Assembly (NCBI RefSeq): GCF_004010195.1
Contig: NC_057719.1
Span: forward strand, 10,376,206 to 10,440,205
Length of the DNA: 64,000 bases
From: Chiloscyllium plagiosum
Lineage: Eukaryota
Direction of reading: 5' to 3'
Positions 1 to 63,608 of the stretch are shown here, piece after piece. A program made the translations under genes and the position numbers. The notes below the pieces were generated by a model. That model worked only from the letters and a program-made list of their open reading frames with translations, was not told the origin of the DNA and did not search any database. Position 1 is the first letter of the stretch. The number at the start of each line of letters is the position of its first letter.

Positions 1-130
1 TTGATGTTTCGGGCAAAAGCCCTTCATCAGCTCATTCCTGATGAAGGGCTTTTGCCTGAAACATTGATCCTCCTGCTCCTCGGATGCTGCTTGACCTGCT
101 GTGCTTTTCCAGCACCACTCTAATCTTGAC
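1..130. mobile_element. Palindromic PLE terminal-repeat remnant with two head-to-head hammerhead motifs (left part outside the window)
   Basis: CTGATGA-A-GGGCTTTTGCCT-GAAACATT at 38-65 on +, and its reverse complement at 1-30. The downstream sequence matches the PLE terminal repeat at 4948-5073. Confidence 0.8.
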
Positions 131-1174
131 AACCATTCTTCTGAAGCCTAAACATTCACCAGCAAGTTTAATTAATCCAGCAGATCTTGTGATACATGCT
201 TCCAACAAAACATAGCCAAATAAATTATATTTGGTTCATTTTGTTCTGGCCTCTGCTTATTTTTCAGACACAATAACATCAGCAAGTTACTTATCTAGTT
301 CCATTATCCAGTAACGTAACAGTGAACTGTGATTCTATTGTTTTCTCGGTGTAATCAGAGATGGAATGGAGTGCAGAAATAATGCCTTATCCTTATGAAA
401 ATGGAAACACTGCATGAGAAAGCCAATGCATTTTTAGCTGTACCTTCCAACGAGATGAACTTCACAGAATCAGAATCTTCACAGTGCAGGAGGCCATTCA
501 GCCCAACGTAGTGCTATCCTTATGTTCTTTCCTGTAAGCCTGCATAGTGCTTAAATTCAAATGTTCATCTAGTGCCCTCTTTAATGTCTTGATTAACCCT
601 TCCTGCTCCCAATCTTCCTGGCAATGCATTCCAGATCCAAACCACTTACTGTGTCAAAATGTTTATTCCCACATCATACTCACTTCCTTTGTAAACCATC
701 TTAAACAAGACTGATGAGTGATGGGTATAGATGGCCATGTGGAGGACTGAAAGATTATGGTCACTATAATTCCCATGCTCATTCCCTTCAGTATTATTGG
801 ATGCATCTCCAAAGTTTCAAAGACTCCAAATGAAATGACTCTGAGGCAGTCTTAAGCAGATCCTAGATGACAGGTGAAGTCACAATCCGAGTGAGGATGC
901 TCATTTGCATTAAATAGCCACTCTCCCTTAAAATAAAATGCAAGTGGTGGTGACTTTAACTTTGCCTCAGATGTGTCATCATAAAAGACAAATATAGACT
1001 CCCTGCCAACAGTTATGTGGTGAACATTGACTATACCAGATGGTGAGCTGCCTTCCTGAGCCACTGCAGTCCTTGGAATGAATCATCCACAGTCGTGCTA
1101 GGAAAGAACTGAGCAACAATGAAGGTAAATTAATACAGTTACAAGTCAGGATTGTGCGTAGCTTGGATGGAAAC

Positions 1175-1810
1175 ATAGAAATATAGAAAATATGTACAGG
1201 AGCAGGCCATTCAGCCCTCCAAGCTTACACCACCATTCAATATGATTGTGGCTGGTCATCCATTTTCAGTACCTCACTTCAGCTTTCTCTCTGTACCCCT
1301 TGATTCCTTTAGCTGCAGGAGCCACGTCCAGCTCCCTCTTGAATATATCTAACGAGCTGGCCCCAACAGCTTTCTGTGGTAGAGAAGGGGTGGCACGGTG
1401 GCTCAGTGGTTAGCACTGCAGCCTCGCAGTGCCAGGGACCCAGGTCTGATCCCAGCCTGGGGTGTCAGTCTGTGTGGAGTTTGCACATTCTCCGTGTCTG
1501 CGTGGGTTTCCTCCGGGTGTACCGGTTTCCACCCACAATCCAAAGATGTGCAGGCCAGGGTGAATTGGCTTTGCTAAACTGTCCGTAATGTTCAGGGATG
1601 CGTAGGTTAGTCAGTAGGATAATAGGGGAAGGGAATGGGTTCGGGTGGGTGACTCTTCAGAGGGGTCAGTGTGGATTTGTTGGATTGAAGGGCCTGTTTC
1701 CACACTGTAGGGATTCTATATATCTAGAATTCCACAGGTTCACAACTCGGAGTGAAAAAAATTCTTCCTCAGCTCAGTCCTGAATGGCTTACGCCTTATT
1801 CTTAGACAGT
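1175..1810 (-). mobile_element. CR1-type LINE 3' fragment interrupted by a SINE
   Basis: Resembles the other CR1 3'-end fragments in the window (GGCCATTCAGCCC..., GAATTCCACAGGTTCACAAC). The SINE splits it at ~1386/1725. Confidence 0.6.
1387..1724 (+). mobile_element. HE1-type tRNA-derived V-SINE
   Basis: tRNA head GGCACGGTGGCTCAGTGGTTAGCACTG, central TGTGGAGTTTGCACATTCTC domain, and a CR1-like 3' end GAAGGGCCTGTTTCCACACTG. Confidence 0.9.
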
Positions 1811-3093
1811 GAACTTTCATGTGATGGTGTTCCCAAGTATCTACTGCCCTTGTCCTACTTGGTGGCAGTGATCCTGAGTTTGGAAGGTGCTGGTTAAGAG
1901 GACTGTGTGAGATGCCAAAGGGCATTCTTATGTTCTGTCATGCTGGTGTGGGAAAAAGGAATGTTGCATACTTTCAGGTTTTTATTTGATTTATTCTCTG
2001 AATGAATATCATAAACAGGCACAGAACATAATAAAATAAATATTATATAAATGTAAAATATTGGAGGGCATAAATCACACCTTATCTTCCAGTGCTAACT
2101 CTTTTGGGACAGCTCAATATAAAACAAAAAGAATTACCAATCATTTGAAAATGCCATACCACAGATCAGCAAAACGGTCAATAAATTATTTGTGCTTAAT
2201 ATAGACATTACTAATCCCAAGTACTAAATTTTCAAATACAATCTGATAAGCTTCTCTATAGAGCATGCACCCAGATCCCTTTGGCCATCCATTTATATTC
2301 ACCAAGATGTATCGGGATACAAGAAGTGGTATGCTGTACCTTCTTTTAGTAAAAGCAGGAAAGAATCTTTCTGTTCAAGGAGTTCTGGTTTTTCCTGAAG
2401 TTTGGTTTAATGCCACTGAAAGCCACTGGAATGTCACTTATGTCTTCTTGATCTGCTCACAGTTAACCTTCCGGGGATGATTTCAGAAAATTAACAATTC
2501 TCTGTATTTGCAGGATGATAATATGGTTTAAGTTGACACAATGGACTGACGTACCTCCACGGATCCCAAGTTGCTCTATCCTCATGGACTCGGCTTCATG
2601 GGATCTGGAAATTGAGGCTGCACTCCTGGACTCAACACGTTTTGTGTTTTTTCTTAATTCATTCACTGGTTTGGCCAGCATTTACTGCCCATCCCTAACT
2701 TCTCTGGAGAACTCGTGCCGAGCTGCATTTTTGAACTGCAGCAGCCCATTTGCATTTACGGGCCACGCTATGAAGGAGGGAATGCCAGGATTTTGACCCA
2801 GTGACATCAAAGGAACAGCTATGTATTTCCAGGTCAGAATGGAGAGTGGCTTGGAGGGGAATGTGCAGCTGGTGGTGCTCCCATATATCAGCTGCCCCGT
2901 CCTTCAAAATGGAAGTGCTCATAGATTTGGAAGTCAGTGTCGAAGGAGCTTGGGAGAATTTCCTACACTGAGTCTGCAGCATCTCTGCCTTTGTATTATC
3001 CAAGAGTGAATATTCACAGGAGTTCCATCACGACTCTTTTATTTGCAGTCTCTAATACAGAATACGAATTTCAGCTACCCAGTACAGTTCTTC

Positions 3094-4534: not shown

Positions 4535-5073
4535 CATCCGCACCGACCAACCCCACCGCCCCGTGGCTGAACACTTTAACTCCCCCTCCCATGCTGTCAA
4601 GTACATGCTGGTCCTGGGCCTCCTCCAGCGCCAAACCCTAACTATCCAACGCCTGGAGGAAGAACGCGTCATCTTCCAACTTGGGACCCTGCAACTACAC
4701 GGGATTAATGTGGATTTCACCAGTTTCCTAATTTCCCCTCCACCCACCTTATCCCAGTTCCAGGTCTCCAACTCGGCACCGCCCTCTTGACCTCTCCATC
4801 GTCCTTCCCACCTATTTACTCCACCCTCCTCTCTGACCTATCACTTTCCCCCCCACCTTCATCCACCTATCACCGTCCCAGCTACCTTCCCCCTAGCCCC
4901 ACCCCCTCCCATTTATCTTTTAACCCCCTGGCCTACATGCCTCATTCCTGATGAAGGGCTTAAGGCCAAAACGTTGATTTTTCCTGCTCCTCGGATGCTG
5001 CCTGAGCTGCAGTGCTTTTCCAGCAACACACTCTCGACTCTGATCTCCAGCATCTGCAGTCCTCACTTTCTCC
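4535..5073 (+). mobile_element. PLE 3' end: GIY-YIG endonuclease C-terminus, pyrimidine-rich UTR and terminal repeat with hammerhead motif
   Basis: Translation VAEHFNSPSH...VLGLLQ...RLEEERVIFQLGTLQLHGINVDF is typical of PLE GIY-YIG C-termini. CTGATGAAGGGCTTAAGGCCAAAACGTT at 4948-4975 is a degenerate hammerhead core. Confidence 0.85.
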
Positions 5074-5096
5074 CATGCTTCCCAGAATGGGAGGTA

Positions 5097-5258
5097 ATTA
5101 CAGCAGATGCTGGAATCTGTATTGAAACAACAAATGCTGGAGATCACAGCAGGCCAGGCAGCATCCATGAAGAGAGAGCAAGCTAATGTTTCCGGTCTAG
5201 ACTAGCTTTCTCTCCATGGATGTTGCCTGGCCTGCTGTGATTTCCAGCACTTTTTGTT
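5097..5258. mobile_element. Palindromic PLE terminal-repeat remnant (centre deleted)
   Basis: Inverted arms TGCTGGAGATCACAGCAGGCCAGGCAGCATCCATG / CATGGATGTTGCCTGGCCTGCTGTGATTTCCAGCA. Confidence 0.75.
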
Positions 5259-5982: not shown

Positions 5983-6925
5983 GTAAGTGGTAGGACTCTT
6001 AGAAGCATTAAGATGCAGAGGGATCTAAGTGTATGGGTCCACAGTTCCCTGAAAGTAACAATGAAAGTGTGTTAAGGTGGTGTATGGTACACTTGCCTTC
6101 ATTGGTCGGGGCGTGGAGTGTAAAAATTGGCAAGTCATGTTGCAGCTGAATCGAACTTTAGTTAGGCCACATTTGGAGCATTGTGTACATTGTACAGTTC
6201 TGGTCACCACATTACCAGAAGGTTGTGATGCTGGAAAAGCACAGCAAGTCAGGCAGCATCCAAGGAGTAGGAGAATCGACGTTTCGTGCATAAGCCCTTC
6301 ATCAGGAATGGCTGATGAAGGGCTTTTGCCCGAAACATCGATTCTCCTGCTCCTCGAATGCTGCCTGACCCTACTGTGCCTTTCCAACTCTCGACTCTGG
6401 ATCTCCAGCATTTGCTAACCTCACTTTTAACCAAAAGGATGTATAGACTTTGGAAAGTAAGGTTTACCATGATGTTGCCTGGTTTGGAAGATATTAGCTA
6501 TTAGGAGAGATTGGCCAAATGTAGTTTGTTTGCACATGGAGACTAAGGGGTGACCTGATAGAAGTTTACAAAATTATGAGAGGCATGGATAGAATGGATA
6601 ATCCAAGTCTTTTTTTCCCAGGCTAGAAATGTCAATGACTGGGGGACATAGATTTAAGGTATAGAGACAAAGTTTAAAGGAGATGTGAGAGGCAGGTGTT
6701 TTACACAGAGTGTAAGTGCCTGGAAAATGCATTGCCAGAGGAGACATTAGAAGTAGATATGGTAACAAAGTTTCAGTGGCACCTCGACAGATACATGAAT
6801 AGGCAGTGAACAGAGGAAGATCAACCGTATATTGCCGAAAGGCTTTTAGTTTACAAAGACATCATGTGTCAGCATAGGTTTGATGGGCCGAAGGGCCTGT
6901 TCCTGCGCTGTACTGTTCTTTGTGC
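5983..6925 (+). mobile_element. CR1-type LINE ORF2 3' fragment interrupted by a PLE palindrome
   Basis: Translation YGTLAFIGRGVECKNWQVMLQLNRTLVRPHLEHCV is CR1 ORF2. It continues after 6430 to the GGGCCGAAGGGCCTGT tail. Confidence 0.85.
6227..6429. mobile_element. Palindromic PLE-derived insertion with two inverted hammerhead motifs
   Basis: Hammerhead motif on - at 6276-6307 and on + at 6312-6339 (CTGATGA-A-GGGCTTTTGCCC-GAAAC-ATC). Near-TSD ACCAGAAGGTTGT (6214-6226) / ACCAAAAGGATGT (6430-6442). Confidence 0.85.
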
Positions 6926-10938: not shown

Positions 10939-10954
10939 CTGTGACGATTGGTCT

Positions 10955-18256: not shown

Positions 18257-18355
18257 GATTCCTGATGAAGGGCTTATGCCTGAAATGTTGACTCTCCTGC
18301 TTCTCGGATGCTGCCTGACCTGCTGTGCTTTTCCAGCACCACTCTAATCTAAACT
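18257..18355 (+). mobile_element. Single-arm PLE terminal-repeat remnant with degenerate hammerhead motif
   Basis: CTGATGAAGGGCTTATGCCTGAAATGTTGA followed by the same sequence as 66-130. Confidence 0.75.
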
Positions 18356-20151: not shown

Positions 20152-20298
20152 GGTAAAAACAATGACTGCAGATGCTGGAAACCAGATTCTGGATTAGTGG
20201 TGCTGGAAGAGCACAGCAATTCAGGCAGCATCCGAGGACAGGCCTGTCCTCGGATGCTGCCTGAATTGCTGTGCTCTTCCAGCACCACTAATCCAGAA
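20152..20298. mobile_element. PLE-derived perfect 112-bp palindrome with 15-bp TSD
   Basis: 20187-20298 is self-complementary about 20242/20243. TSD CCAACATTCCTCATG at 20137-20151 and 20299-20313. The host is a CR1 3' fragment (~20050-20510, -). Confidence 0.9.
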
Positions 20299-21814: not shown

Positions 21815-22336
21815 TGAGCAGTTGCTGTTGTAGTCTGGTATACTGATCTCGACATTGCAGAGGCTGAGCATCAACTCTCAGATACCTCCTCCTATCTTCC
21901 CCTGGATCATATCTCCAACATGGCACATCAGGCCACTGTATGAACTACAATCACTGACCTCATTTCTCCCCCACTGCCTCCAAGCTGACAGTCTCCCAAC
22001 CCCACTCCTACCTCCTTCTGAAAATCCACAAACAGGACTGCCTGGGTAGACCCATTGTTTCAGTCTGTTCCTGCTCCACAGAACTCATCTCTGCCTGCCT
22101 TGACTCCGTCTTCTCTCCCCTGGCCCAGTCCCTGCCCACGTACATTCACAATTCCTCTGATGTTTCTGTATATAAACCAACATATTCCTAGATGCCATCA
22201 GTTCTGAGGAAGGGTCTCAGCACCCAAAATATTAACATTGACTTCTCTTCACAGATGCTGCCAGACCTGCTGAGCTTTTCCAACAACTTCAATTTTTTTT
22301 CTGATTTCAAGCGTCCGCAGTTCTTTCGGTTTTTGT
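21815..22336 (+). mobile_element. Degenerate PLE reverse-transcriptase N-terminal fragment followed by a terminal-repeat remnant
   Basis: Translations AVVVWYTDLDIAEAEHQLSDTSSYLPLDH and PIVSVCSCSTELISACLDSVFSPLAQSLPTYI match PLE RT. GTTCTGAGGAAGGGT...CACCCAAAATATTAAC at ~22201 is a decayed hammerhead motif. Confidence 0.75.
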
Positions 22337-24049: not shown

Positions 24050-24283
24050 AGATAAAAATAAAAATTGCTGGAAAAGCTCAGCAGGTCCAGCAGCATCTGC
24101 AGAGAGAAATCAGAGTTAACATTTCAGGTTGAGTGACCCTTCCTCAGAACATTCTGAGGAAGAGTCGCTGGACCCGAAACATTAGCTTCGATTTCTGTCC
24201 ACAGATGCTGCCAGACCTGCTGAGTATTTCTAGCAATTTCTATTTTTGTCTCTGATTTACAGTATCTGCAGTTCTTTCAGTTT
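24050..24283. mobile_element. Palindromic PLE-derived insertion with two inverted hammerhead motifs, nested in a SINE
   Basis: GTTAACATTTCAGGTTGAGTGACCCTTCCTCAGAA / TTCTGAGGAAGAGTCGCTGGACCCGAAACATTAGC, with ~100-bp inverted arms. Confidence 0.8.
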
Positions 24284-25717: not shown

Positions 25718-26090
25718 GCTGGAAGAACACAGCAAGCTAGGCAGCATCAGGAGGTGGAGAAGTCAATGTTTCAGGTGTAACCCTTCTTCAGGACTAGGGT
25801 AGGTGTGAGGGGAGATACAGATTAAGGGGGGTTGGGGAAGGGTTTTGGATGGGAAGAGGAGTAGAGTGGTGAGGCAGTGACAGTTGAACACAGGTAGTGA
25901 GTATGACCAGGTTGGTCAGTGGGAGGAATGAATCCAGTTAGTACCTGGAAGGAAGGGTTGGTCAAAGGAGTGAGAGGGAGGGAGAGGAGCTGGAAAGGAG
26001 TCGGGGAATGGGAAGGGAGGTTATTTGAGATTGGAGAACTCAATGCTGAGTCCTCCAGGATGTAGGCTGCCCAGGCGGAAGATGAGATGT
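25718..26090 (-). mobile_element. PLE 3' end (GIY-YIG C-terminus, UTR, terminal repeat with hammerhead motif)
   Basis: The minus strand encodes HLIFRLGSLHPGGLSIEFSN. Hammerhead motif GTC-CTGAAGA-A-GGGTTACACCT-GAAAC-ATT-GAC at 25762-25794 (-). Confidence 0.8.
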
Positions 26091-38995: not shown

Positions 38996-40008
38996 TGTAA
39001 TTCAGGGTCCCAGCCCTGTGTAATTCAGGGTCACAGCCCTGTGTAATTCAGGGTCACAGCCCTGTGTAATTCAGGGTCACAGCCCTGTGAAATTCAGGAT
39101 CCCAGCCCTGTGAAAATCAGGGTCACAGACCTGTGAAATTCTGGGTCCCACCAGTGTGAAATTCAGGGTCACAGCACTGTGGAATTAAGGGTCACAGCAC
39201 TGTGAAAAACACAGTCAGAGATGTGTGAAATTCAGTGTTATGTCAATGTGAAATTCAGGGTTATTGCAGTATCAAATTCAGAGTTACAGCAGGGAGAAAT
39301 TCAGGGTTACAGCAGTGAGAAATTCAGGGTCATAGCACTGTGAAATACAGAGTAACAGCAGTTTGAAATTCAGGGTCATAGCACGTTAAATTCTGGGTAA
39401 CAGCAGTGTGAAATTTTGGGTTACAGCATAGTTAAATTCAGAGTTATAGCAGTGTGAAATTCATTGTGATAGCAGTATTAAATTCAAGGTAATAACAGCA
39501 TGAAATTCAGGGTAATACCATGGTTAAATTCAGCATGAAAGTCAGGGTTATAGCAGTATCAAATTCAGGGACACAGCAATATGGAATTCATGGTTACAGC
39601 CGTACCAAATTCAGGGTTACAGCTGTGTGAAATTTTGGGTTACAGCAGAGTTAAATTCAGAGTTATATCAGTGTGAAATTACGGTTTATAGCATGGTTAA
39701 ATTCAGCATTATAGCCATGTGAAAGTCAGGGTTACACCATGGTTAAATTCAGCATTATGGCCATGTGAAATTCAGGGTTATAGCATGGTTAAATTCAGCG
39801 TTATAGCTATGTGAAATTCAGGATTATAGCATGGTTAAATACAGCATTTTAACCATGTGAAATTCAGGATTATAGCATAGTTAAATACAGCATTGTGGTA
39901 GTGTGACATTCAGGATCACAGAAGTATGAAATTCAGGGTCACAGCAGTGTGAAATTTTGGGTTACAGCAGTTATATTCAGAGTTATAGCCATGTGGAATT
40001 CCAGATTA

Positions 40009-40333
40009 TTAGATTAGATTAGATTACTTACAGTGTGGAAACAGGCCCTTCGGCCCAACAAGTCCACACCGCCCCACCGAAGCGCAACTCACCCATACCC
40101 CTACATTTACCCCTTACCTAACACTACGGGCAATTTAGCATGGCCAATTCACCTGGCCCTGCACATCTTTGGACTGTGGGAGGAAACCGGAGCACCCGGA
40201 GGAAACCCACGCAGACACGGGGAGAACGTGCAAACTCCACACAGTCAGTCGTCTGAGGCGGGAATTGAACCCGGGTCTCTGGCGCTGTGAGGCAGCAGTG
40301 CTAACCACTGTGCCACCGTGCCGCCCACCGTGC
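40009..40333 (-). mobile_element. HE1-type V-SINE inserted in the satellite
   Basis: Full-length, CpG-rich, (GATTA)n tail, satellite on both sides. Confidence 0.95.
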
Positions 40334-41983
40334 CGTTCATAGCTTGGTTAAATTCAGTGTTGTAGCAGTGTGAAATTCAGGGTTATAGCATGTTGAAATT
40401 CAGCATTATCACCATGTGAAATTTAGGGTAATACCATGGTTAAATTCAACATTATAGCAGTGTGACATTCAGGGCTATAGCATGTTAAATTCAGCGTTAT
40501 AGCCATGTAATGGTCAGGGTTATAATGCGGTTAAATGCAGCGTTATAGCCAAGTGAAATTCAGATTATAGCATGGTTAAATTTAGCGTTATAGCCATGTG
40601 AAATTCGGGGTAATACCATGGTTAAATTCAGCATTATACCCATGTGAAAGTCAGTGTTATAGCATGGTTAAATTCAATGTTACAGCAGTGTGAGAATCAG
40701 GATTATATAATGGCTAAATTCAGCGTTATAGCCATGTGAAATTCTGGGTTATATGATGGTTAAATTCAGCATTATAGCCATGTGAAAGTCAGTGTTATAG
40801 CATGGTTACATCCAGCATTATAGCCTTGTGAAAGTCAGTGTTATAGCATGGTTACATCCAGCATTATAGCCATGTGAAAGTCAGTGTTATAGCATGGTTA
40901 CATCCAGCATTATAGCCATGTGAAAGTCAGGGTTATAGCATGGTTAAATTCAGCGTTATAGCCATGTGCAATTCAGAGTAGAGCATAGTTACATTCAGCA
41001 ATATAGCATGGTTACATTCAGCATTATAGCTATGTGAAATTCAGGGTTATAGCATGGTTAAATTCAGCGTTATAGCTATGTGAAATTCAGGGTTATAGCA
41101 TGGTTAAATTCAGTGTTATAGCCATGTGAAATTCAGGGTTATAGCATGGCTAAATACAGCATTTTAGCCATGTGAAATTCAGGATTAGTGCACAATTAAA
41201 TACAGCATTTTAGCCATGTGAAATTCAGGATTAGTGCACAATTAAATTCAGCATTATAGCCATGTGAAATTCAGTGTTATATCAGGCTAAATTCAGCAAT
41301 ATAGCAGTATGAAATTCAGGGTTATAGCATGGTTAAATTGAGCATTGTAGCACTGTGAATGTCAGGGTTATAGCATGGTTAAATTCAGCATTTACAGAAT
41401 TGGGAAATTCACGGTTATCGCATATTCAATTCATAGTTATAGCAGTGTGGAATTCAGGGTTATAGCATGGTTAAATTCAGCATTACAGCCATGTGAAAGT
41501 TAGGGTTATAGCATGGTTAAATTCAGCGTTACAGCATTGTGAAATTCAGGGTTATAGCATGGTTAAATTCAGTACTATAGCCATGTGAAATTCAGAGTTA
41601 TAGCATGTTAAATTCAGCGTTATAGCCATGTAAAAATCAAGGTTTTTGCATGTTAAATTCAGCGTCACATCAGTGTGAACTTCAGAGTTATAACATGGTT
41701 AAATTCAATGTTACAGCATTGTGAAATTCAGGGTTATATCAGGTTAAATTCAGCATTATAGACATGAGAAATTCAAGGTTATAGAATAGTTAAATTCAGC
41801 ATTAGAGCCATCTAAAACTTTGGGTTATAGCATGGTTAAATTCAGCATTATAGCATGGTTAAAATCAGCGTTATAGCATGTTAAATCTAGTGTTATAGCA
41901 GTGGGAAATGCATGGCTATAGCATGATGAAATTTAGTGTTATAGCCATGTGAAAGTTTGGGTTATAGCATTGTTAAATTCAGC

Positions 41984-42315
41984 GGGCGGCACGGTGGCAC
42001 AGTGGTTAGCACTGCTGCCTCACAGCGCCAGACACCCGGGTTCAATTCCCGCCTCAGGCGACTGACTGTGTGGAGTTTGCACGTTCTCCCAGTGTCTGCG
42101 TGGGTTTCCTCCGGGTGCTCCGGTTTCCTCCCACAGTCCAAAGATGTGCAGGTCAGGTGAATTGGCCATGCTAAATTGCCCGTAGTGTTAGGTAAGGGGT
42201 AAATGTAGGGGTATGGGTGTGTTGCGCTTCGGCAGGGCGGTGTGGACTTGTTGGGCCGAAGGGCCTGTTTCCACACTGTAAGTAATCTAATCTAATCTAA
42301 TCTAATCTAATCTAA
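41984..42315 (+). mobile_element. HE1-type V-SINE inserted in the satellite
   Basis: Full-length with (TAATC)n tail. It splits a B unit, AAATTCAGC|ATTATAGCC, with only 2-3 bp duplicated. Confidence 0.95.
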
Positions 42316-42829
42316 GCATTATAGCCATGTGAAACTCAGGGTTATAGCATGGTTAAATTCAGCATAATAGCAGTGTGAAATTCAGGGTAATACCATGTTT
42401 ACAATCAGTATTATTGCCATGTGAAATTCAGAGTTATAACATGGTTAAATTCAGCAATATTGCTATGTGAAATTCAGGGTTATAGCATGGTTAAATTCAG
42501 CATAATAGCAGTGTGAAATTCAGGGTAATACCATTGTTAAATTCAGCATTACAGCATAATTGTGAAATGTAACCATGCTATAACCCTGGATTAAATTCAG
42601 CATTACAGTAGTGTGAAATTCATGGTTATAGCATTATGAAATTCAGCGTTATAGCTATGTGAAATTCAGGGTTATAGCATAGTTAAATTCAGCATTAGAG
42701 CCATTTAAAATTTTGGGTTATTGCATGGTTAAATTCAGCGTTATTGCATAGTTAAATTCAGCATTAGAGCCATTTAAAATTTTGGGTTATTGCATGGTTA
42801 AATTCAGCATTACAGCATAATTGTGAAAT

Positions 42830-45060
42830 GTAACCATGCAATAACGCTGAATTTTAAATGGCTCTAATGCTGAATTTAACTATGCTATAACGCTGAATTT
42901 AACCATGCAATAACCCAAAATTTTAAATGGCTCTAATGCTGAATTTAACTATGCTATAACCCTGACTTTCACATAACTATAAGGCTGACTTTCACAATGC
43001 TATAACCATGAATTTCACACTACTGTAACGCTGAATTTAACCATGCTATAACCCTGAATTTCACTCTGCTATAATGCTGAATTTAACATGCTATAATCCT
43101 GAACTTCACAGTGCTATAACACTGAATGTAAATATGTTATAACCCTGAATTTCACATGGCGAAAACGCTGAATTTAACCATGCTATAACCCTTAATTTCA
43201 CGCTGATATAACGCTGAAATTAACCATGCTATAACCCAGAAAATAACCATGGTATAACCCTGCATTTCATATGACTATAACGTTGACTTTAACCATGCTA
43301 TAACCCTGAATTTCAAACTGCTGGAACGCTGAATTTAACATGCTATAACCCTGAATTTCAAATGGCTATAATGCTGAATTTAACAATGCTGTAACACTGA
43401 ATTTCACACTGCTTTAACGCTGAATTTAACCATGCTATAATGCTGAATTTAACTATGTTATAACCCAAAGTTTTGCATGACTCTAATGCTGAATTTAACT
43501 ATGCTATAACCCTGAATTTCTCATGGCTATAATGCTGAATTTAACCCGATATAACCCTGAATTTCACAATGCTATAATGCTGAATTTAACCATGCTGTAA
43601 CCCAGAATTTCAAATGGGTATAATGTTGAATTTAACATGCTATATCTCTGAATTTCACATGGCTATATGGCTGAATTTAACCATGCTATAACCCTGAATT
43701 TCACAATAGTATAATGCTGAATATAAACATGGTATAATGCTGAATTTCACATGGGTATAATGCTGAATTTCACAATGCTATAACACTGAATTTAACCATG
43801 GTATAATCCTGAATTTCACATAGACATAATGCTGAATTTAACCATGCTACAATGCGGAATTTCACACTGTTGTAACGCTGAATTTGACATGCTCGACCCC
43901 TGAATTTCACATGGCTATAATGCTGAATTTAACCATGCTATAACCCTGAATTTTACACTGCTCTAACGCTGAATTTTACCATGATATAACCCTGAATTTC
44001 ACGCTGCTATGATGCTGAATTTAACCATGTTATAACCCAGAATTTCACATGGCTATAATGCTGACTTTAATGATGCTATGACCTTGAATTTCACACTGCT
44101 GTAATGCAGAATTTAACATGCTATAACCCTGAATTTCACATGGCTATGCTGAATTTAACCATGCTATAATACTGAATTTCATAATGGTATAACGCTGAAT
44201 TTAACGATGCTAAAACCCAGAATTTCACATGGCTCTAATGCTGAATTTAACCATGCTATAATGCTGAATTTAACCATGCTATAATACTGAATTTCATAAT
44301 GGTACAACGTTGAATTTAACTATGGTATAATCCTGAATTTCACATGGCTATAATGTTGAATTTAACCATGCTATAACCCTGAATTTCAAATGGTATAATG
44401 CTGAATTTGACATGACTATAATGTGAATTTAACTGTGCTAAAATCCTGAATTTCACACTGCTGTAACGCTGAATTTAACATGCTATAACCCTGAATGTCA
44501 CATGGCTATAATGCTGAATTTAATCATGCTATAACCCTGAATTTCACAATACTATAATGCTGAATTTAACCATGCTATAACCCTGACTTTCACGTGGCTA
44601 TAATGCTGAATTTAACCATGCTATAATGCTGAATTTAACCATGCTATAATACTGAATTTCATAATGGTACAACGCTGAATTTAACTATGGTATAACCCTG
44701 ACTTTCACATGGCTATAACGCTGAATCTAACCGTGCTATAACCCTGAATTTCACAATGCTTTAATGTTTAATTTAACCATGCTACAACCCTGACTTTCAC
44801 ATGGCTATAACGCTGAATCTAACCGTGCTATAACCCTGAATTTCACATATTTATAATGCTGAATTTTACCATGATATAATCCGGAATTTCACATAGCTAA
44901 AAGCTGAATTTAACCATGGTATAATGCTGAATTTCATGCTGCTATAATGCTGAATTTAACCATGCTATAATGCTGAATTTAACCATGCTAAAATGCTGAA
45001 TTAAACGATGCTATAACCCTGAATTTCACACTGCTATAATGCTGAATTTAACAATGCTAT
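42830..45060 (-). repeat. Inverted block of the satellite
   Basis: Units read GCTGAATTTAACCATGCTATAACCCTGAATTTCACA, the reverse complement of the flanking array. Confidence 0.95.
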
Positions 45061-46713
45061 AGCAGTGTGAAATTCAGAGTTATAGAATGGTTATATTCAA
45101 CGTTATAGCCATGTGAAAGATAGGGTTATAGCATGTTAAATTCAGCGTTACAGCAGTGTGAAATTCAGGGTTATACCATGGTTAAACTCAGCATTATATC
45201 CATGTGAAATTCTGGATTATAGCCATGTAAAATTCAGTGTTATAGCATGGTGAAATTCAGCGTAATAGCCATGTGAAATTCAGGGTTATAGAATACTTAA
45301 ATTCAGCATTAGAGCCATGTAAAATTTTGGTTTATAGCATGGTTAAATTCAGTGTTACAGCATGTTAAATTCAGCGTTACAGCAGTGTGAAATTCAGGGT
45401 TATACCATGGTTAAACTCAGCATTATATCCATGTGAAATTCTGGATTATAGCATGGTTAAATTCAGCATTATAGCCATGTAAAATTCAGGGTTATAGCAT
45501 GGTAAAATTCTGCATTATAGCCATGTGACATTCAGGGTTATAGCATGGTTAATTTCAGCATTATACCAGCGTGAAATTCAGTGTTATAGCATGGTGAAAT
45601 TCAGCGAAATAGCTATGTGAAATTTAGGGTTATAGGATATTTAAATTCAGCATTAGAGCCATGTAAAAGTTTGGGTTATAGCATGGTTAAACTCAGCGTG
45701 AGAGCCAAATGAAATCCAGCGTTATACTATGGCTAAATTCAGCATTATAGCTATGTGAAATTCTGGGTTATAGCATGGTCAAATTCAGCGTTATAGCCAT
45801 GTGAATTTCAGGGTTATACCACGGTGAAATTCAGCGTTATAGTATTGTGAAATTCAGGGTTATAGCATGGTTAAATTCAGTGTTGTAGCATTGTGAAATT
45901 CAGGGTTATAGCATGGCTAAATTCAGTGTTATAGCCATGTGAATTTTAGGGTTATACCACGGTGAAATTCAGCATTATAGTATTGTGAAATTCAGGGTTA
46001 TAGCATGATTAAATTCAGTGTCATAGAAGTGTGAAATTCAGGGTTATAGCGTGCTTAAATTCAGCGTCATAGGAGCGTGAAATTCAGTGTTATAGCATGG
46101 TTAAATTCAGAGTCATATCAGGTTAAATTTAGCATTATAGCCATGTGAAATTCAAGGTTATAGAACCGTAAATTCAGCATTATAGTCATGTAAAATTCAG
46201 GGTTACAGCATGGTTACATTCAGCGTTACAGCAATGATAAATTTAGGGTTATAGCAATATTAAATTCAGTGTTGTAGCATTGTGAAATTAGGGTTATAGC
46301 ATGGTCAAATTCAGCATTATAGCAGCGTGAAATTCAGGCTTATTGCATTGTTAAATGCAGCGTTATAGCATGGTTAAATTCAGCGTTACAGCACTGTGAA
46401 ATTCAGGATTATAGCATGGTTAAATTCAGCATTATACCCATGTGAAATTCAGGGATATAGCATGGTTATATTCAGCATTATAGCCATGTGAAATTCAGGA
46501 TTATAACATGGTTAAATTCAGTGTTATAGTTATGTGAAATTCAGGGTTATAGCATTGTTAAATTCAGTATTGTTGCATTGTGAAAATCAGGGTTATAGCA
46601 TTTTCAAATTCAGGGCTATATCATGTTAAATTTAGCATTCAAAGTTTGGGAGAAGATTTGTAACTCGGGTGCTTGTTGTTGTGGTTCTGTTCGCCGAGCT
46701 GGGAATTTGTGTT

Positions 46714-46753
46714 GCAGACGTTTCGTCCCTTGTCTAGGTGACATCCTCAGTGC
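46714..46753 (-). ncRNA. Minimal type-I hammerhead ribozyme motif (intact core)
   Basis: GCA-CUGAGGA-U-GUC(ACCUAGACAAGG)GAC-GAAAC-GUC-UGC: helix I GCA/UGC, helix II GUC/GAC, palindromic ACGU helix III, GUC cleavage triplet. Confidence 0.8.
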
Positions 46754-47391
46754 GTGGGAGCCTCCTGTGAAGCGCTTCTGTGATCTTTCCTCCGGCAAGG
46801 TATACAGGAAAGCCACACACACAGACCAAGTCCTAAACTACGAAAGCAACCACCTCAACACACACAAAAGAAGTTGCAACAAGACACTGTTCAAAAGGGC
46901 CAGACTACTGCGACCCATAGGACTCATAACGGCACACAAACCAACAGCCACGCTCAGACAACTCACCAGAACGAAGGACCCGATACCCAACATGAGCAAA
47001 ACGAATGTAGTGTACAAAATACCATACAAGGACTGCACAAAACACTATATAGGACAAACAGGAAGACAGCTAACAATCCGCATACATGAACATCAACTAG
47101 CCACGAAACGACACGACCAGCTATCCTTAGTAGCCACATACGCAGACGGCAAGCAACATGAATTCGACTGGGACAACACTACTATCATAGGGCAAGCCAG
47201 ACAGAGAACAGCCAGGAAATTCCTAGAGGCATGGCATTCATCCACAAACTCCATCAACAAACACATCGACCTGGACCCAATATACCAACCACTACAGCGG
47301 ACAGCTGAAACTGACAACCGAAAGCGGCAGGGACAGACCATTATAAACACCGGAGGAAACATCAAAGAAGCGCTTCGCAGGAGGCTCCCAA

Positions 47392-47431
47392 GCACTGATG
47401 ATGTCGCCTAGCCAGGGGACGAAACGTTTGC
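47392..47431 (+). ncRNA. Minimal type-I hammerhead ribozyme motif
   Basis: GCA-CUGAUGA-U-GUC(GCCUAGCCAGGG)GAC-GAAAC-GUU-UGC. A second, CpG-decayed copy lies at 48158-48197. Confidence 0.75.
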
Positions 47432-50053
47432 AACAAAAACTTCCAGCTCGGCGAACAGAACCACAACAGGGCCACAATACACTGCAGTACACCAGAACTG
47501 CAAAAAGAGCAAGAAGAACACCTCTACAATGTATTCGCCAAAAACGGATACTCCCGCAATTTCATCAACAGATGCCTAAAGTAAAGACAACGGAATGAGG
47601 ACATGCCACAACCCAAAGGACTAGCCACACTACCATACATCAAAAACATTTCTGAACTGACAGCCAGACTACTGCGACCACTAGGACTCATAACAGCACA
47701 CAATCCAACAGCCACGCTCAGACAACAACTCACCAGGACGAAGGACCCGATACCCAGCATGAGCAAAACCAATGTAGTGTACAAAATCCCATGCAAGTAC
47801 TGCACAAAACTCTACATAGGTCAAACAGGAAGACACTAATGATCCGCATCCATGAACACCAACTAGCCACGAAATGACATGACCAGCTATCCTTAGTAGC
47901 CACACACTCAGATGACAAGCAACATGAGTTTGACTGGGACAACACTACTATTTTAGGACAAGCTAAACAGAGAACAGTCAGGGAATTCCTAGAGACATGG
48001 CATTCATCCACAGATTCAATCAACAAGCACATCAACCTGGACCCAATATACCGGCCACTGCAACGGACAGCTGGAACTGACAACCGGAAGCGGCAGATTC
48101 AAACCACTACAAATGCCGGAGGAAAGATCACAGAAGCGCTTCACAGGAGGCTCCCAAGCACTGAGGATGTCACCTAGACAAGGGACAAAACATCTGCAAC
48201 ACAAATTCCCAGCTCGTAAATTTAGCATTATCGCCATGTGAAATTCTGGGGTAAAGCACAGCTAAATTCAGCATTACACCAATTTGAAAATCAGGGTTAC
48301 AGCATGTTAAATTCAGCATTATAGCCATTTGAAATTCAAGGTTATAGCACCGTTAAATTCAGCATTATAGCCATGTAAAACTCAGGATTACAGCATGGTT
48401 AAATTCAGCGTTATAGCAATGATAAATTCAGGGTTATAGCATTGTGAAATTAGGGTTATAACATGGTCAAATTCAGCATTATAGCCATGTGAAATCCAGG
48501 GTTATACCATGGTTAAATTCAGCATTATAGCCATGTGAAATCCAGGGTCATACCATGGTTAAATTCAGCATTATAGCCATGTGAAATTCAGGATTATAAG
48601 ATGGTTAAATTCAGCATTATAGCAGTGTGAAATTAAGGGTTATAGCATGGTTATATTCAGCGTTCTAGCCATGTGAAATTCAGGATTATAAGATGGTTAA
48701 ATTCAGCGTTATAGCAATGTGAAATTCATGGATATAGCATGGTTAAATTCAACGTTGTAGCATTGTGAAAGTCAGGGTTATGGCATGGTTAAATTCAGCG
48801 TTATTGCCATTCAAAATTTATTGTTATAGCATGGTGTAATTCAGCATTAAAGCAGTGTGAAATTCAGTGTTATAGCATTGTCAAATTCAGGGGTATATCA
48901 GGTTAAATTTAGCATTACCGGCATGTGAAATTCTGGGGTATAGCACAGTTAAATTCAGCATTATTCCAATTTGAAATTCAGGGTTATAGCATGGTTAAAT
49001 TCAGCATTATAGCCAGGTGAAATTCAGGGTTTGAGCACGGTTAAATTCAACGTTACAGCATGTGCATTTCAGGGTTTATCAGGTTAAGTCAGCATTATAG
49101 CCAGGCGAAATTCAGGGTTATAGCATACTTTTCTTCCGCATTAGAGCCATGTAAAAGTTTAGGTTATAGCATGTTAAATTCAGCATTATAGCAGTGTGAA
49201 ATTCAGGGTTATAGCATGTTAAATTCAGTGTTATACCCATGTGAAATTCTGGGTCATAGCATGGTTAAATTCAGCCTTATCCCATTATGAAATTCAGTGT
49301 TATTGCATGGTTAAATTCAGCGTAATAGCCATGTGAAATTCAGAGTTGTAGCATTTTTAAATTCAGCAATATAGCCATGTGAAATTCAGGGTTTCAGCAT
49401 TGTTAAATTCAGCATTATAGCCATGTGAAATTCAGGATAATACCATGGTTATATTCAGCATTATACTATTGTGAAATTCAAGGTTATAGCATGGTTAGAT
49501 TCTGCATTATACCCATGAGAAATTCAGGGTTATAGCATGGTTAAATTCAGCGTTACAGTATTGTGAAATTCAGGGTTACAGCAGTGTGAAATTCAGGGTT
49601 ATACCATGGTTAAATTCAGCATCACAGCAGTGTGAAATTCAGGGTTATAGCATGGTTAAATTCAGCGTCACAGCAGTGTTAAATTGAGAGTTATAGCATG
49701 GTTAAATTCAGCGTTATAGCCGTGTTAAAGTCAGTGTTATAGCATGATAAAATTCAGCAATATAGCATTGTGAAATTCATTGTGATAGCACTATTAAATT
49801 CACAGTTATAACAGTGTGAAATTCAGGGTTATAGCATGGTTAGATTCAGTGTTATAGCCATATGAAATTCAGGGTTACAGCATGGTTAGATTCAGTTTTA
49901 TAGCCATATGAAATTCAGGGTTACAGCATGGTTAGATTCAGTGTTATAGCCATATGAAATTCAGGGTTATAGCATGGTTAGATTCAGCATTATTTTTGTG
50001 TGAAATTCAAGGTTAATCCACACTGCTTTAAAATGGAATACTACATAAAATAC

Positions 50054-50241
50054 GAAAGATATGCGGATGCTGTAAATCAGAAATGAAAATGAAAATTTCC
50101 TGGAAAGGCTCAGTAGATCTGGCAGCATGTGTGTTCTGAGGAAGGGTAACTCAACCTGAAACGTTAACTCTGATTTCTCTCCATAGATGCTGCCCGACCT
50201 GCAGAGCTTTTCCAGCAAGTTCTGCTTTTTTTCTGATTTAA
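50054..50241. mobile_element. PLE-derived inverted insertion with hammerhead motif (50133-50168, +)
   Basis: GUU-CUGAGGA-A-GGGU(AACUCA)ACCU-GAAAC-GUU-AAC. Inverted arms CTGGAAAGGCTCAGTAGATCTGGCAGCAT / ATGCTGCCCGACCTGCAGAGCTTTTCCAG. Confidence 0.8.
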
Positions 50242-53671: not shown

Positions 53672-54267
53672 GTGAGTATAAATACTCACCTTTTAATCAC
53701 CAACGGTCATTTGAGTGGGAGCAGCGGAAGTGAGGTTGGAGCGCATAGCTGGGCGGGAAGGTAAGTGATTAGTATTTGAGTGGGTGTGTTCTAGACCCCA
53801 GGTCCTACTCCCGTAGGGCCTCCCTCCCACCCTCCTCCTCTAGCCTAACTTTAAAGTCCACAGGTAAGTGACTCAGTGTTATTGACTCAGTGCTCTTGTT
53901 TTTGGAGAAAGTGTACAGTCATGGCAGCGCAGGCGGTGGACTGTTCCTCCTGCAGGATGTTTGAGGTAGGGGTGACCACCGATACTCCTGCCGACTTCGT
54001 CTGCAGGAAATGCAGTCAGATCCTGATCCCCACCGAACGAGTTAGGGAACTGGAACTGGAGTTGGATGAACTGAGGATCATTCCAGAGGCTGAGAGGGTG
54101 CTAGATAGAAGCTACAGGGACATAGTTACGCCGGAGAACAGAGGTAGCTGGGTAACAGTTAGAGGTGGGAAGGGGAAGAAGCAGGCAGTGCAGGGTTCCC
54201 CTGTGGACGTGCCCCTAAAAAATAAATATACAGCTTTGGAAACTGTTGGGGGGGACAGCGTTGCAGG
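53672..54267 (+). mobile_element. CR1-type LINE 5'UTR plus ORF1 N-terminus (3'-truncated)
   Basis: From ATG 53921: CSSC...FVCRKC zinc finger, coiled coil ERVRELELELDELR, then WVTVR and VPLKNKYTAL motifs typical of CR1 ORF1. Similarity ends abruptly at ~54267. Confidence 0.8.
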
Positions 54268-54513
54268 TGTAATGCCAGGAAGCAGCCTGATGAATAAGAA
54301 CTGGACTCTCTCTGTTGTATCAATCCCTTTTAATGAAGCAGAACTGAAACTGTGCACAGTAATCCAATTACTAATTGGAAGAATAATAAAACAGCAATGG
54401 CAAGGACAAAGGCTTGCCATTTGCACTAGCTGGTAAGACTGGAAAACTGGGCTACTCCCAATTCTGCCCATTTGACAGCATTTCATCACTATTGGTTAGA
54501 TTAAAGTTCATTC

Positions 54514-58165: not shown

Positions 58166-58403
58166 TAAAAATCACACAACACTAGGTTATAGTCCAACAG
58201 GTTTAATTGGAAGCACACTAGCTTTCGGAGCGACGCTCCTTCATCAGGTGATCGCTCCTTCATCAGGTGGTAGGCTATCACCTGATGAAGGAGCGTCGCT
58301 CCAAAAGCTAGTGTGCTTCCAATTAAACCTGTTGGACTATAACCTGGTGTTATGTGATTTTTAACTTTGTACACCCCAGTCCAACACCGGCATCTCCGAA
58401 TCA
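58166..58403. mobile_element. Palindromic PLE-like insertion (distinct family) with inverted hammerhead motifs and 15-bp TSD
   Basis: ~90-bp inverted arms. TSD TAAAATAACCAAAGT at 58151-58165 and 58404-58418. Motifs at 58216-58250 (-) and 58279-58313 (+). Confidence 0.88.
58216..58250 (-). ncRNA. Minimal type-I hammerhead ribozyme motif, AGCU/CUA variant
   Basis: CAC-CUGAUGA-A-GGAGC(GUC)GCUCC-GAAAG-CUA-GUG: helix I CAC/GUG, 5-bp helix II, palindromic AGCU helix III. Confidence 0.78.
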
Positions 58404-59846: not shown

Positions 59847-60708
59847 TGTTATGCAGATTTGGATGTACTGAATCTTTAATAGCGTTTAATGCTAACAGCA
59901 CTACCTGACAGCACCAAGTGTTCTGAACAAGACATAATGTAACCTGTGAAGAGAAAATGAGGTCTGCAGATGCTGGAGATCAGAGATGGAAATGTGTTGC
60001 TGGAGAAGTGCAGCAGGTCAGGCAGCATCTAGGGAACAGGAGAATCGACGTTTCGGGCATTAGCCTGAAGAAGGCTAGATGTTCCCTAGATGCTGCCTGA
60101 CCTGCTGCGCTTCTCCAGCAACATATTTCCATCCATAATGTAACCTGTGGTTCACGAGCAAGTGTAGCTGGTTGCCGGGAAATGACAAAACAGATTCAAA
60201 TTAGGACAATCAGTTTAAACTAAACTCCAAAAAAAACCAAACTCCAATCAAGTTTGAATTTAGTGCATCAACAATTGTAAAAGCATAATCCGATGCTTTG
60301 GGGATATAAGACCGGGGAAAATTGAACAGTTGGGAGGAGAACTGCCAAACCAATGACATCTGCAGACTGCCTGGACATTAGCTCTCTTAAAGGTCTGCGA
60401 CCTGTGAAGCTGAAATCCCTAAGGAGAAGAAAAGAAGGTCCGACATCTGGGTAGTTTTTTGTAAACTTGAATTTTTGTTAAATCATAATCGGGGGTTTTA
60501 TCAGACTAATATTGCAGAAGGGGAAGATAAAAGATAGGATAGAAGAAGGAGGTGTAAATAGTTGTGAGTTAATTATTCTCAGTTACGCTTTAAGAAATAA
60601 AGTTGTTAATTTTTACTTTAAATAGTTCATGTCCTATCGAATTTTCACAGACTACTGCATGGGATAAATCTTTTCTGTGTTGCTGGTTTAAATTACGCAG
60701 GAGTAACG
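59847..60708 (+). mobile_element. Solo LTR with 4-bp TSD
   Basis: TGTTA...TAACG termini (last base differs from the expected A), ATAA duplicated on both sides, TATA-like GATATAAG near 60303, AATAAA near 60596. Confidence 0.7.
59949..60133. mobile_element. Palindromic PLE-derived insertion with 16-bp TSD, nested in the solo LTR
   Basis: TSD CATAATGTAACCTGTG at 59933-59948 and 60134-60149. Inverted arms surround truncated hammerhead halves (TCGACGTTTCGGGC; CTGAAGAAGG). Confidence 0.88.
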
Positions 60709-61059: not shown

Positions 61060-61590
61060 GATTAAAAATCGAAACCTATTGACATACAGACAAGCAAAAG
61101 TAATGTCATTTACAAAATACCGTGCAAGAACTGTAACAAACACTACATTGGACAAACGCGCAGAAAACTAGCCACCAGGATACATGAACATCAACTAGCC
61201 ACAAAAAAACATGATCCTCTCTCACTAGTATCCTTATATTTAGATAAGGAAGGACACCACTTCGACTGGGACAACACATCCATCCTAGGACAAGCCAAAC
61301 AAAGACACGCACCAGAATTCCTCGAAGCATGGCATTCCAACTGGAACTCTATCAACAAACACATCAAGTTAGACCCCATCTACCACCCCGTGAGAGAAAC
61401 AACAGGAAATGCCATCACCACAGGAAATGACATCACCAACCCAAAGAAACCCAAACATATAAATAGAAAGCAGGAATCATCAGCAGTGCTTCGCCTGGAG
61501 GCCCACTGAAGATGTTACCTAGTGGGGTAATGAAACGTCTGGAAATGAACTTTCCAGCTCAGTGAGCAAACCTACATCCAGAACCTGAAG
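61060..61590 (+). mobile_element. Penelope-type 3' fragment: GIY-YIG endonuclease plus terminal repeat
   Basis: Translation KSNVIYKIPCKNCNKHYIGQTRRKLATRIHEHQLA...FDWDNTSILGQA...EFLEAWHS; paralogous to 46640-48216. Confidence 0.9.
61503..61542 (+). ncRNA. Minimal type-I hammerhead ribozyme motif
   Basis: CCA-CUGAAGA-U-GUUACC(UAGUGG)GGUAAU-GAAAC-GUC-UGG: helix I CCA/UGG, 6-bp helix II, ACGU helix III. Confidence 0.78.
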
Positions 61591-63487
61591 ACATCCAAAA
61601 ATAGAATGCTTGTGTGACCTCCAAAGACAAGCTGCACTGTAGAAATGCATCCAGGTTCCTTAAACAGAACCGTCCCTTCATGGGATTTGACCAACTTGAT
61701 GAGGCCAATCCATCGTTTGTTGGTTTTCAGAAACTGGCGATGAGCTGTCGTTTTGAACCATTGCCGTACATGGGCTGTAGGTAGCCCCACAATTGTGTTA
61801 GGGAGAGAGTTCATAATCTTAGAGTAATACAGTATGGAAACAGGCCTTTCAGCCCAAACTGGTCCATGCTGACCATGATACCCACTCAGCTAGTTGCTGC
61901 ATTCTAAGGTTTTGTTCCTAGCTCAGAGAAGCTTTAAGTTTTAAGTCAGAATGATGTGTGGCTTGGGTGGGATCTTCCAGGGAATAGTGCTCTCGTGTTA
62001 TCTGCTACCTGCACCCTTCAGGGCATGCAGGTTGCAGGTTTAGAAGGTGCTGTCAAAGAAAGCTTGGGAGTGGGGTTACAGTAGTGCTGTCACACTGCTT
62101 TCATTGTGTGGACTTGGTCAATCTTTAATGAATGTCTAATAAAGCATCAATCATGGAGGCTACTTTACTGTGGGTGGTATCAAACATTTTGAATGCCATT
62201 GGAGTGCCAGGCAAATGGAGAGTATTTTGTCACACTCCTGACTTGTGCCTTGTGCACAGCAGAGGTGAATTACTCACCGGGGAATTTGCAGCCTCTGACC
62301 ACAGTACTTATATGGCAGGTGGAGGCATGATGGGCCAAATGGCCTCCTTCTGTACCATAACAACGCAGTGGCTCGGTGGTACACTTCAGTTTCTGGTTAA
62401 TGATAACTTCCAGGATGTTGGCAGTCGGGGATCCCCACTGAATGTCAGGAAAAGGTGGTTGGTTTCTCTCTGGTTGGAGATGGCATTTCTGTGGTATGAA
62501 TAAACTTTTTCACATGCTAGTTAGCAGCCCACACCTGAATGATGCCCGGATCTTGATGCACATAAATACAGAATACAGCTACATTTTGAGAGTGCACGCT
62601 CGTCAGCCAATTGACTTCCTGACAAAAACAAAATTGTTGACAAAGAACATGCTTTTGTAGCATTTGGTAAGGAAAGGCCCATTGAATTCTGAACTGTAAA
62701 TTTAGATTAGAAATTTATATAATAACTAAATGCAAATATACAATCAAATTAAACATTGAACTACAAAATAGATGACTGCCATTGAATACTGTGCTATTTG
62801 TTAAAAGGCACCAGAGTCTGAAACCAAATAACTGATCTTGACAACATTTTGTTTTAGGACATGGTGAAACTGAATAATATCAAGCCATGCTAATAAAATA
62901 CTCCATTACTGTGGAAGATGAAGAAACAACACAAACCACATAGACAAAGCAAGAGAGTATAAGTCGGAAAAATCATGGATTCAAACTCTGCAACTGCTCT
63001 GTGCAGACCACACCTTGGAAACCAAGACACATGAGAATAATGGCAAGCAAAGGCACAGGGCAGAACCACAGCTGCAAGGTACAACTGAAGAAGGCCGAGC
63101 CCCACAACCTTGAATTGCAGGTAACTAGGAGGCGATTCTCAAGGGCTAATCAAAATAACAATTCGTGTGGAAAATGCAAACCTAAGATAAACTGTGACAG
63201 TGGGACAAAGGCTGATTTTTTAAATTGAAAAATCAGATGCAGATTTAGACCTGCAATGAGATGCTGGAAGCTCGTACTTCCTCATTAGCCTCTTGGACTA
63301 TAACCTGGTGTTGTGTGATTTTTAACTTTGAATAGCATAGACTGAACAGCCCTGAAACACTGAACAATAGGTTCTTTTGGATGACTGAGCAAGGTTTTTC
63401 TTGTCTTTTGTCTATTTTATGTTCTTATTTGGGACAGAAGCAGACACTGGGCGAAGGGAGAAGAGAAAAATAAAAGTCTCTATACTG

Positions 63488-63608
63488 ATGTGGAGGTGCC
63501 GGTATTGGGCTGAGATGAACAAAGTCAGAAGTCACACGATACCAAGTTATAGTCCAACAGGTTTAGTTGAAATCACAAGCTTTAGGAGCGCTGCTCCTTC
63601 ATCAAGTG
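63488..63608 (-). mobile_element. Single-arm remnant of the 58166-58403 family
   Basis: GTCACACGATACCAAGTTATAGTCCAACAGGTTT...AGCTTTAGGAGCGCTGCTCCTTCATCAAGTG. Another short piece lies at ~63293-63330. Confidence 0.7.

Follow-up and report, generated by a model that had tools for sequence, protein, structure and literature searches.

The DNA analysed here, hereafter the window, is a stretch of 64,000 nucleotides from the genome of Chiloscyllium plagiosum (contig NC_057719.1; G000:C10:10376206-10440205), in an assembly of 3.556 Gb and 101,977 contigs. It harbours 22 whole-core copies of a minimal type-I hammerhead ribozyme motif associated with the terminal repeats of Penelope-like elements (PLEs). 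Fifteen of these have an intact core, and six are complete, combining an intact core with helices I and II of at least 3 bp each and a paired palindrome (Table 1). The window also contains partial or core-less tail pieces, and 13 of the 22 motifs belong to head-to-head pairs. A strict descriptor (intact core, helix I of at least 3 bp, helix II of at least 2 bp) matched the window eight times, whereas 20 dinucleotide shuffles gave 0.05 matches on average; allowing one mismatch in GAAA raised this to 12 against 0.7. A covariance model trained on 17 copies of lineage A-type and B/C, from which family D was excluded, gave 19 window matches at E <= 6e-4; these included its 11 training copies from the window and missed family D.

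These counts agree with a preliminary description, made from the letters alone, of about 20 recurrences of the motif, many of them decayed. Five of its six examples were recovered by the strict descriptor at the positions it gave, while the sixth, 6312-6339, was not, since it lacks helix I. It had also anticipated that ordinary annotation would give these repeats no ribozyme label, and an Rfam scan of the window gave 15 matches at E <= 5, none of them a hammerhead. The Rfam matches were only microRNA-like hairpins under their cut-offs, and we set them aside as products of satellite DNA and fold-back pairs.

The motif is extremely abundant in the genome. An intact-core pattern occurs 164,295 times (63 times when the pattern is reversed), without strand bias (82,120 and 82,175). 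A CpG-tolerant pattern, from which family D is omitted, occurs 296,588 times, against 495 in the control. Patterns that spell out both helices match 16,229 copies of family D and 13,299 of family B, with none in the controls, so that these two families together contribute no fewer than 29,528 letter-perfect complete motifs. A random sample of 138 stretches, each of 10 kb and placed arbitrarily on the 32 largest contigs (1.328 Mb without N), allowed us to extrapolate to other grades of preservation. Both helices reached 3 bp in 35 of 77 intact-core matches, corresponding to about 75,000 complete motifs (95% range 56,000-94,000), and helix I reached 2 bp in 62 of the 77, corresponding to about 132,000 motifs genome-wide. 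Scaling the counts anchored on the tail gives roughly 0.5 million remnants with a whole core and 0.8 million tail pieces. The expectation that the density of the window would hold genome-wide was therefore correct as regards a very large load. The window is average in intact cores (4 against 3.0 expected) but about 3.4 times richer than expected in CpG-tolerant matches (18 against 5.3), so its decayed copies are not representative.

The composition of the motif is consistent across families. Among 169 pattern matches from the random sample and the window, 163 could be classified, yielding nine subfamily majorities. The catalytic boxes CUGANGA, GAAA and UH, in type-I order, are the majority form of every subfamily with at least two copies. 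When zero to two bases were allowed between A9 and G10.1, a single base was the best parse in seven of the eight strict matches, and not in all of them as first described. C11.1 is the majority base in A, B, C, D and E, and the T found instead in some copies is attributed to CpG decay. Helix III is loopless, with a palindrome at positions 15.2-16.2 that reads CG in A, B, C, E and F and GC in D. At the level of subfamilies, CG is present in eight majorities except for one decayed single copy, again with GC in D. The palindromes ACGU and AGCU, reported for all examples, thus hold for the family majorities, but two of the six examples (25762-25794 and 6312-6339) carry ACAU. Likewise, the family with a GGGC/GCCC helix II is present, but its majority helix I consists of 2 bp followed by U.U and one more pair.

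The stems differ between families and remain paired, as the preliminary description had proposed. We scored only the 54 positions left unconstrained by the search pattern, dealing the 3' strands among subfamilies as a null. Fifty of the 54 were paired in the nine majorities, against 25.0 +/- 4.3 in the null, and none of 100,000 permutations reached this value. In an alignment of 17 real copies, 87.6% of cells were paired, compared with 18-39% in slid controls, and two-sided changes were present in eight of ten pairs.

Gene content provided the link to PLEs. The families fall into three lineages, the first comprising A, E, F, G, H and I, which have a common downstream tail box, the second D, which stands apart, and the third the related families B and C. 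The claim of at least six families overstates their diversity, which amounts to these three lineages. Judging from linker and layout motifs, A and D may be labelled Neptune-type and B/C Poseidon-type; a CX2-5CxxC linker between reverse transcriptase (RT) and GIY-YIG is described as a feature of the Neptune clade (PMC8557442). In the first lineage, long frames in L102 and L109 carry RVT_1, and a GIY-YIG domain with a partly decayed cysteine linker was read by eye; two of the three cysteines are present in the single family A copy read (L102). Families E, G and H are linked to PLEs solely via the common tail box and RT pieces. In the second lineage, the motif is preceded, at a distance of 650-780 nt, by a frame that combines RT, a full CX4CxxC linker (L191) and GIY-YIG; the RVT_1 matches of the D frames (L188, L191) are weaker than those in A and B. 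Fold-back pairs of D confine an extra tail to one arm, a PLE signature according to PMC8557442. Between the two arms of the D pair in the window, the spacer (58250-58282) contains yet another motif copy, the third, which is partial and comes from the 5' half (58266, minus strand). In the third lineage, a frame of L118 encodes RT (RVT_1 present) followed by GIY-YIG without a cysteine linker, and ends within the motif. Here A9, the extra U and G10.1 read AUG, opening a frame, in all six translated copies of B and C. Other long open frames picked up in the genome proved to be mostly assembly gaps and were set aside.

Four families were said to lie directly downstream of GIY-YIG coding sequence within the window, and these can be identified as A, B, C and F. 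The motifs of B (47395 and 48161) and C (61506) abut it, and that of A (4948) follows some 160-170 nt behind. The F motif (25791) follows, after about 230 nt, a C-terminal remnant some 20 residues long, seen by translation only and without a tblastn match.

Table 1. Hammerhead motifs, fold-back pairs and associated coding sequence in the window (positions within the window)
Feature	Position	Strand	Remarks
Family A motif (Neptune-type lineage 1)	1-33	-	Fold-back partner of 35-68; cut by window end; ACAU, palindrome lost; no helix I
Family A motif	35-68	+	Intact core; helix I 2 bp; palindrome lost
GIY-YIG C-terminal fragment, family A element	4536-4778	+	tblastn 75% identity over 68 amino acids, E 1e-26, to L102 open reading frame (ORF)
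Family A motif	4945-4978	+	G12 lost
Family H fold-back pair	5125-5258		Partial or core-less
Family A motif	6275-6308	-	Intact core; helix II broken; fold-back partner 6309-6342
Family A motif	6309-6342	+	6312-6339 of the preliminary description; begins at C3; no helix I; ACAU, palindrome lost
Family A motif	18259-18292	+	Intact core; helix I 2 bp; wobble palindrome
Family A fold-back pair	20169-20298		Core-less; source of spurious mir-577 match
PLE RT N-terminal fragment	21836-22158	+	Ahead of 22201 motif; tblastn E 3e-26
Family E motif	22201-22236	+	G12 lost
Family E motif	24115-24150	-	Complete; wobble palindrome AUGU; fold-back partner 24151-24186
Family E/I motif	24151-24186	+	Helix II and palindrome broken
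Family F motif	25762-25794	-	Helix I 4 bp; ACAU, palindrome lost
Family A motif	29227-29260	+	Palindrome and helix I lost
Family H motif	31797-31833	-	G12 lost
Family E/G motif	32448-32483	-	Intact core; helix II 2 bp; head-to-head with 32638-32675
Family G motif	32638-32675	+	Decayed
Poseidon-type insertion in 23-bp satellite	46640-48216		Inverted 5'-truncated copy, then two direct units of GIY-YIG and terminal repeat (pLTR)
Family B motif	46714-46753	-	Complete; predicted cleavage 3' of 46717
GIY-YIG coding sequence, family B	46899-47411	+	92.7% to L118 ORF; frame terminates within helix II of the motif
Family B motif	47392-47431	+	Complete
Family B motif	48158-48197	+	G12 and palindrome lost; sole near same-strand partner of any complete window motif
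Family E motif	50133-50168	+	Complete; inverted core-less tail at 50105-50133
Family D motif (Neptune-type lineage 2)	58216-58250	-	Complete; AGCU palindrome; fold-back partner 58279-58313
Family D motif	58279-58313	+	G12 lost; arm with extra 3' tail
Family A fold-back pair	59979-60131		Partial cores
GIY-YIG coding fragment, family C	61066-61506	+	PF01541 E 3.6e-4, 21.2 bits (under cut-off of 22.6); 70% to L118 ORF
Family C motif	61503-61542	+	Complete; helix II 7 bp
Family D motif	63574-63608	-	C3 and G12 lost

Some of these insertions are composite. The unit at 46627-48229 mixes two subfamilies: the motifs at 46750 (minus) and 48161 (plus) are alike (96.6%), and the one between them at 47395 (plus) belongs to the other subfamily (89.6%). 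This unit lies between direct repeats of 13 nt, which are also satellite sequence. The satellite itself, of 23 bp, occupies about 15 kb (34528-49987). One near-perfect block comprises 191 copies (34840-39235), other blocks are older and degenerate, and one at about 42830-45060 is inverted, its junctions yielding spurious microRNA matches. At 21836-22236, almost no sequence separates the N-terminal RT fragment from a family E terminal repeat, so that the two form an internally deleted element; L016 holds a similar join with a later RT piece. As for host genes, zero Pfam matches were found among the 78 frames scanned out of the 110 window frames of at least 78 amino acids, a scan that short exons could escape. 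A 193-amino-acid frame with paired cysteines at 53855-54436, without a Pfam match, resembles ORF1 of CR1-type long interspersed nuclear elements. Outside the window, frames at L042:924-2381 resemble the integrase/RNase H region of a long terminal repeat retrotransposon.

The fate of the dispersed copies is informative on the role of the motif. We examined 235 copies found via their tail rather than their core. At the CpG formed by C11.1 and G12, C>T changes, which affect the tolerated C11.1, numbered 39, and G>A changes, which strike the catalytic G12, numbered 38 (p = 1.0). G12 acts as general base in the reaction (PMC6155905). At the CpG of positions 15.2-16.2, the corresponding numbers were 26 and 33 (p = 0.43). 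Dispersed copies thus decay neutrally. Their arrangement was assessed in 257 copies with context. Of these, 104 were solo and 121 had a head-to-head neighbour no more than 1.5 kb away; 77 of the distances between such partners did not exceed 20 nt. Head-to-head pairs fold into hairpins of -91 and -106 kcal/mol that bury the motif. An intact same-strand partner within 3 kb was present for four of 45 core-intact copies, where chance predicts 4-16% per family.

The cleavage junction is kept in 108,753 family A tails, and 705 tails begin at it. Among 100 listed ends at the site, 19 and 17 represent two types of self-junction via GA microhomology, and several others are short deletions. As most ends at the site look like microhomology joints, we did not count them as a cleavage footprint in the DNA. 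The retained junctions, together with the origin of most tails that start there, indicate that templates were uncut, or rejoined, at the site. In the random sample, 5' ends fell at the cleavage site in seven of 139 and two of 48 cases.

RNA reads from one poly(A) single-cell run covered the motif region of a family A element about 20 times deeper than its ORF (about 1,180 against about 50). The same run showed zero pile-up of read ends on this element, although the library type is poorly suited to detecting one. Deeper coverage without pile-ups is as expected from passive co-transcription. No RNA contigs are listed for 46640-48260. Some 15-20 nt behind the cleavage site, copies of A, E and G (50166-50195, 32420-32450 and others) carry a pyrimidine tract and AG followed by ATG, a stretch that resembles a 3' splice site before a start codon; zero matching joints behind A and E motifs were present in the one RNA run. 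Taken together, nothing we found points to activity of the dispersed copies, given their neutral decay, chance-level cis partners and uncut templates.

The 5' ends of insertions are not evenly distributed. In the random sample, ends falling from 2 nt inside to 10 nt before C3 accounted for 38 of 105 family A copies and 17 of 36 family D copies at risk, 3.8 and 5.0 times the frequency elsewhere, while B/C showed no crowding (1 of 25). The p-values, 1e-9 for A and 4e-6 for D, are both too small, because the bin was picked post hoc, both fold-back arms were counted, and masking sets overlapping arms at 0. The crowding could result from a start site just before the motif, from a stall behind it, or from fold-back priming. 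Local palindromes were considered as a cause and rejected, as the hairpins they form are weak, at -0.7 to -3.4 kcal/mol, and do not surpass those of B in stability; fold-back priming is therefore not favoured.

We consider it likely that these sequences are minimal type-I hammerheads residing in the terminal repeats of three PLE lineages, that their fold is kept, probably only in source elements, for predicted cutting of dimers, and that dispersed copies are probably inert. This reading builds on direct observations: the motif, its covariation between subfamilies, its link to RT and GIY-YIG, its copy number, neutral decay, head-to-head layout and uncut junctions. Following published PLE work, reverse transcription would start 50-150 nt behind the motif, which would then be among the first sequences copied. 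Even the shortest 5'-truncated or fold-back insertions would consequently carry it, which would explain its high number. In a tandem source transcript, two motifs may pair via the 4-nt palindrome and exchange helix I strands, with each core then cleaving the partner copy; the reaction would be slow and probably helped by the protein of the element. Cutting would probably be a side step, such as trimming or regulation, that is dispensable for insertion, and selection on the fold would act in source elements and not in dispersed copies. The study of PMC11167929 describes internal initiation behind the motif, protein-assisted cleavage and core mutants that insert normally, and PMC4209133 describes cleavage that is weak and confined to dimers.

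Several results weigh against this reading. The p-value of the covariation permutation is too small, because the nine subfamilies descend from three lineages. Measures that resist relatedness, namely the number of pairs with two-sided changes and the number of pair types, did not exceed shuffles (113 and 135 of 500). The fold is thus well supported between lineages, by few independent events. In the commonest subfamilies, A1 and A3 (89 of the 163 classified matches), helix I consists of C-G, U-A, U.U and A-U, and 57 of these 89 have exactly two contiguous pairs; such a helix would fit poorly with efficient cutting. The modelled active dimer lay 6-17 kcal/mol above the best dimer fold in all eight copies tried, although the model omits the tertiary contacts of the core, and these unfavourable energies neither prove nor exclude activity. 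When B and C are taken alone, C>T changes outnumber G>A changes by 8 to 2 (p = 0.11). Finally, the cleavage site is where 705 family A tails begin, more than the 111 that do so 4 nt upstream or the 408 that do so 4 nt downstream, although most of those at the site look like microhomology joints.

In an alternative reading, the hammerhead-shaped fold would be kept in source elements for a role other than cutting, such as protein binding, translation start or a stop or switch point for RT, or would be a dispensable passenger, at least in family A. The weakest helix I is found in A, the most amplified family, and insertions of A and D preferentially begin at the 5' border of the motif. The AUG formed by A9, U and G10.1 opens a frame in B and C, and likewise the ORF of an anole element starts at stem II (PMC11167929). 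Moreover, Naiad elements are reported to thrive without hammerheads (PMC8557442). Nevertheless, the catalytic positions, the freedom of N7, H17 and the palindrome are all retained across three deep lineages, whereas a binding site needs no exact catalytic pattern, and the anole motif of the same kind does cut (PMC11167929). We thus regard a non-cutting role as unlikely. Activity of dispersed copies in host transcripts, where long-range meetings in cis or in trans would nick pre-mRNA and the host would tolerate or use this, is very improbable. Complete motifs in introns would number tens of thousands, the letter-perfect ones of B and D providing ample material, and the 20-fold excess of motif-region RNA means that tail pieces are widely co-transcribed. 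However, G12 is lost neutrally, strand counts are balanced, partners occur at chance level and hairpins sequester the motif, while even designed dimers are described as weakly active (PMC4209133).

The remaining explanations have next to no probability. Non-LTR retrozymes, tandem hammerhead arrays multiplying via circles, have been reported in one cartilaginous fish (10.64898/2026.07.22.740005), and like the present motifs they are type-I, derived from PLE pLTRs and found in thousands of copies. Retrozymes form head-to-tail arrays, whereas the copies described here are solo or head-to-head truncation products, the 5'-truncated ends of coding PLEs. The window has no head-to-tail units, and none of its motifs lies in a tandem array, its tandem repeats being only the 23-bp satellite and short repeats. 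It is just as hard to credit a chance resemblance or an assembly artefact. Monomer folding energies do not improve on those of shuffles (z from -1.3 to +0.7), and assembly gaps are frequent at these elements; however, 164,295 matches against 63, the strict scan and the covariation all contradict chance, and the same stretch also occurs in contigs of other runs, in three organisms.

Every feature of the motif listed in the preliminary description is already in PMC4209133 (Cervera and de la Pena 2014). The minimal hammerheads of metazoan PLE pLTRs described there have the same core, one base between positions 9 and 10.1, the G10.1-C11.1 pair, a palindromic 15.2-16.2 and a short helix I, with several consensus families per genome, and occur mostly as single motifs, with opposite-strand pairs as well. 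These pairs are 100-700 bp apart in that work, but often no more than 20 nt apart here. Copy number differs as well, with about 75,000 complete motifs estimated here against thousands there (about 4,000 in coelacanth and 9,000 in Xenopus), counts obtained with a different descriptor. PAc, a Poseidon element of Anolis carolinensis (Frangieh et al. 2024, PMC11167929), offers a further parallel: the end of its ORF enters the motif, stem II starts with AUG, a tail of 30-40 nt is optional and the template is uncut RNA. This layout is matched only by B and C, whereas A and D have an untranslated spacer of 160-770 nt between GIY-YIG and the motif. The Penelope hammerhead of Drosophila virilis, as described in PMC4209133, has a 2-bp helix I as in A1/A3, but differs in its bulged helix II and in a palindromic insert of 2 nt within helix III; an intron ends at its helix I (PMC4209133). 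An expansion of Penelope-like elements has been reported in whale shark introns (10.1101/443036). Our literature search returned no paper on hammerheads in shark PLEs, although the supplements of PMC4209133 or 10.64898/2026.07.22.740005, Repbase or Dfam may list these families.

Based on these findings, the motif class is a known one and the window itself is ordinary; what is unusual is only the number. The genome-wide numbers exceed published values for other vertebrates about tenfold, and Rfam misses all of these motifs. A bolder reading, which we consider improbable, is that this would be the largest vertebrate hammerhead load described, with about half a million remnants and tens of thousands of complete motifs, enough for protein-assisted or trans dimers to cut host pre-mRNAs measurably, and that the Neptune-only pile-up at the 5' edge would be the fossil of a motif-directed transposition step. 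In any case, such a copy number makes the mechanism of PLEs readable from DNA alone, through neutral decay, uncut templates and the crowding of 5' ends. A family that has exceeded 100,000 copies with a helix I of only 2 bp offers a natural way to ask whether the hammerhead is needed by PLEs at all.

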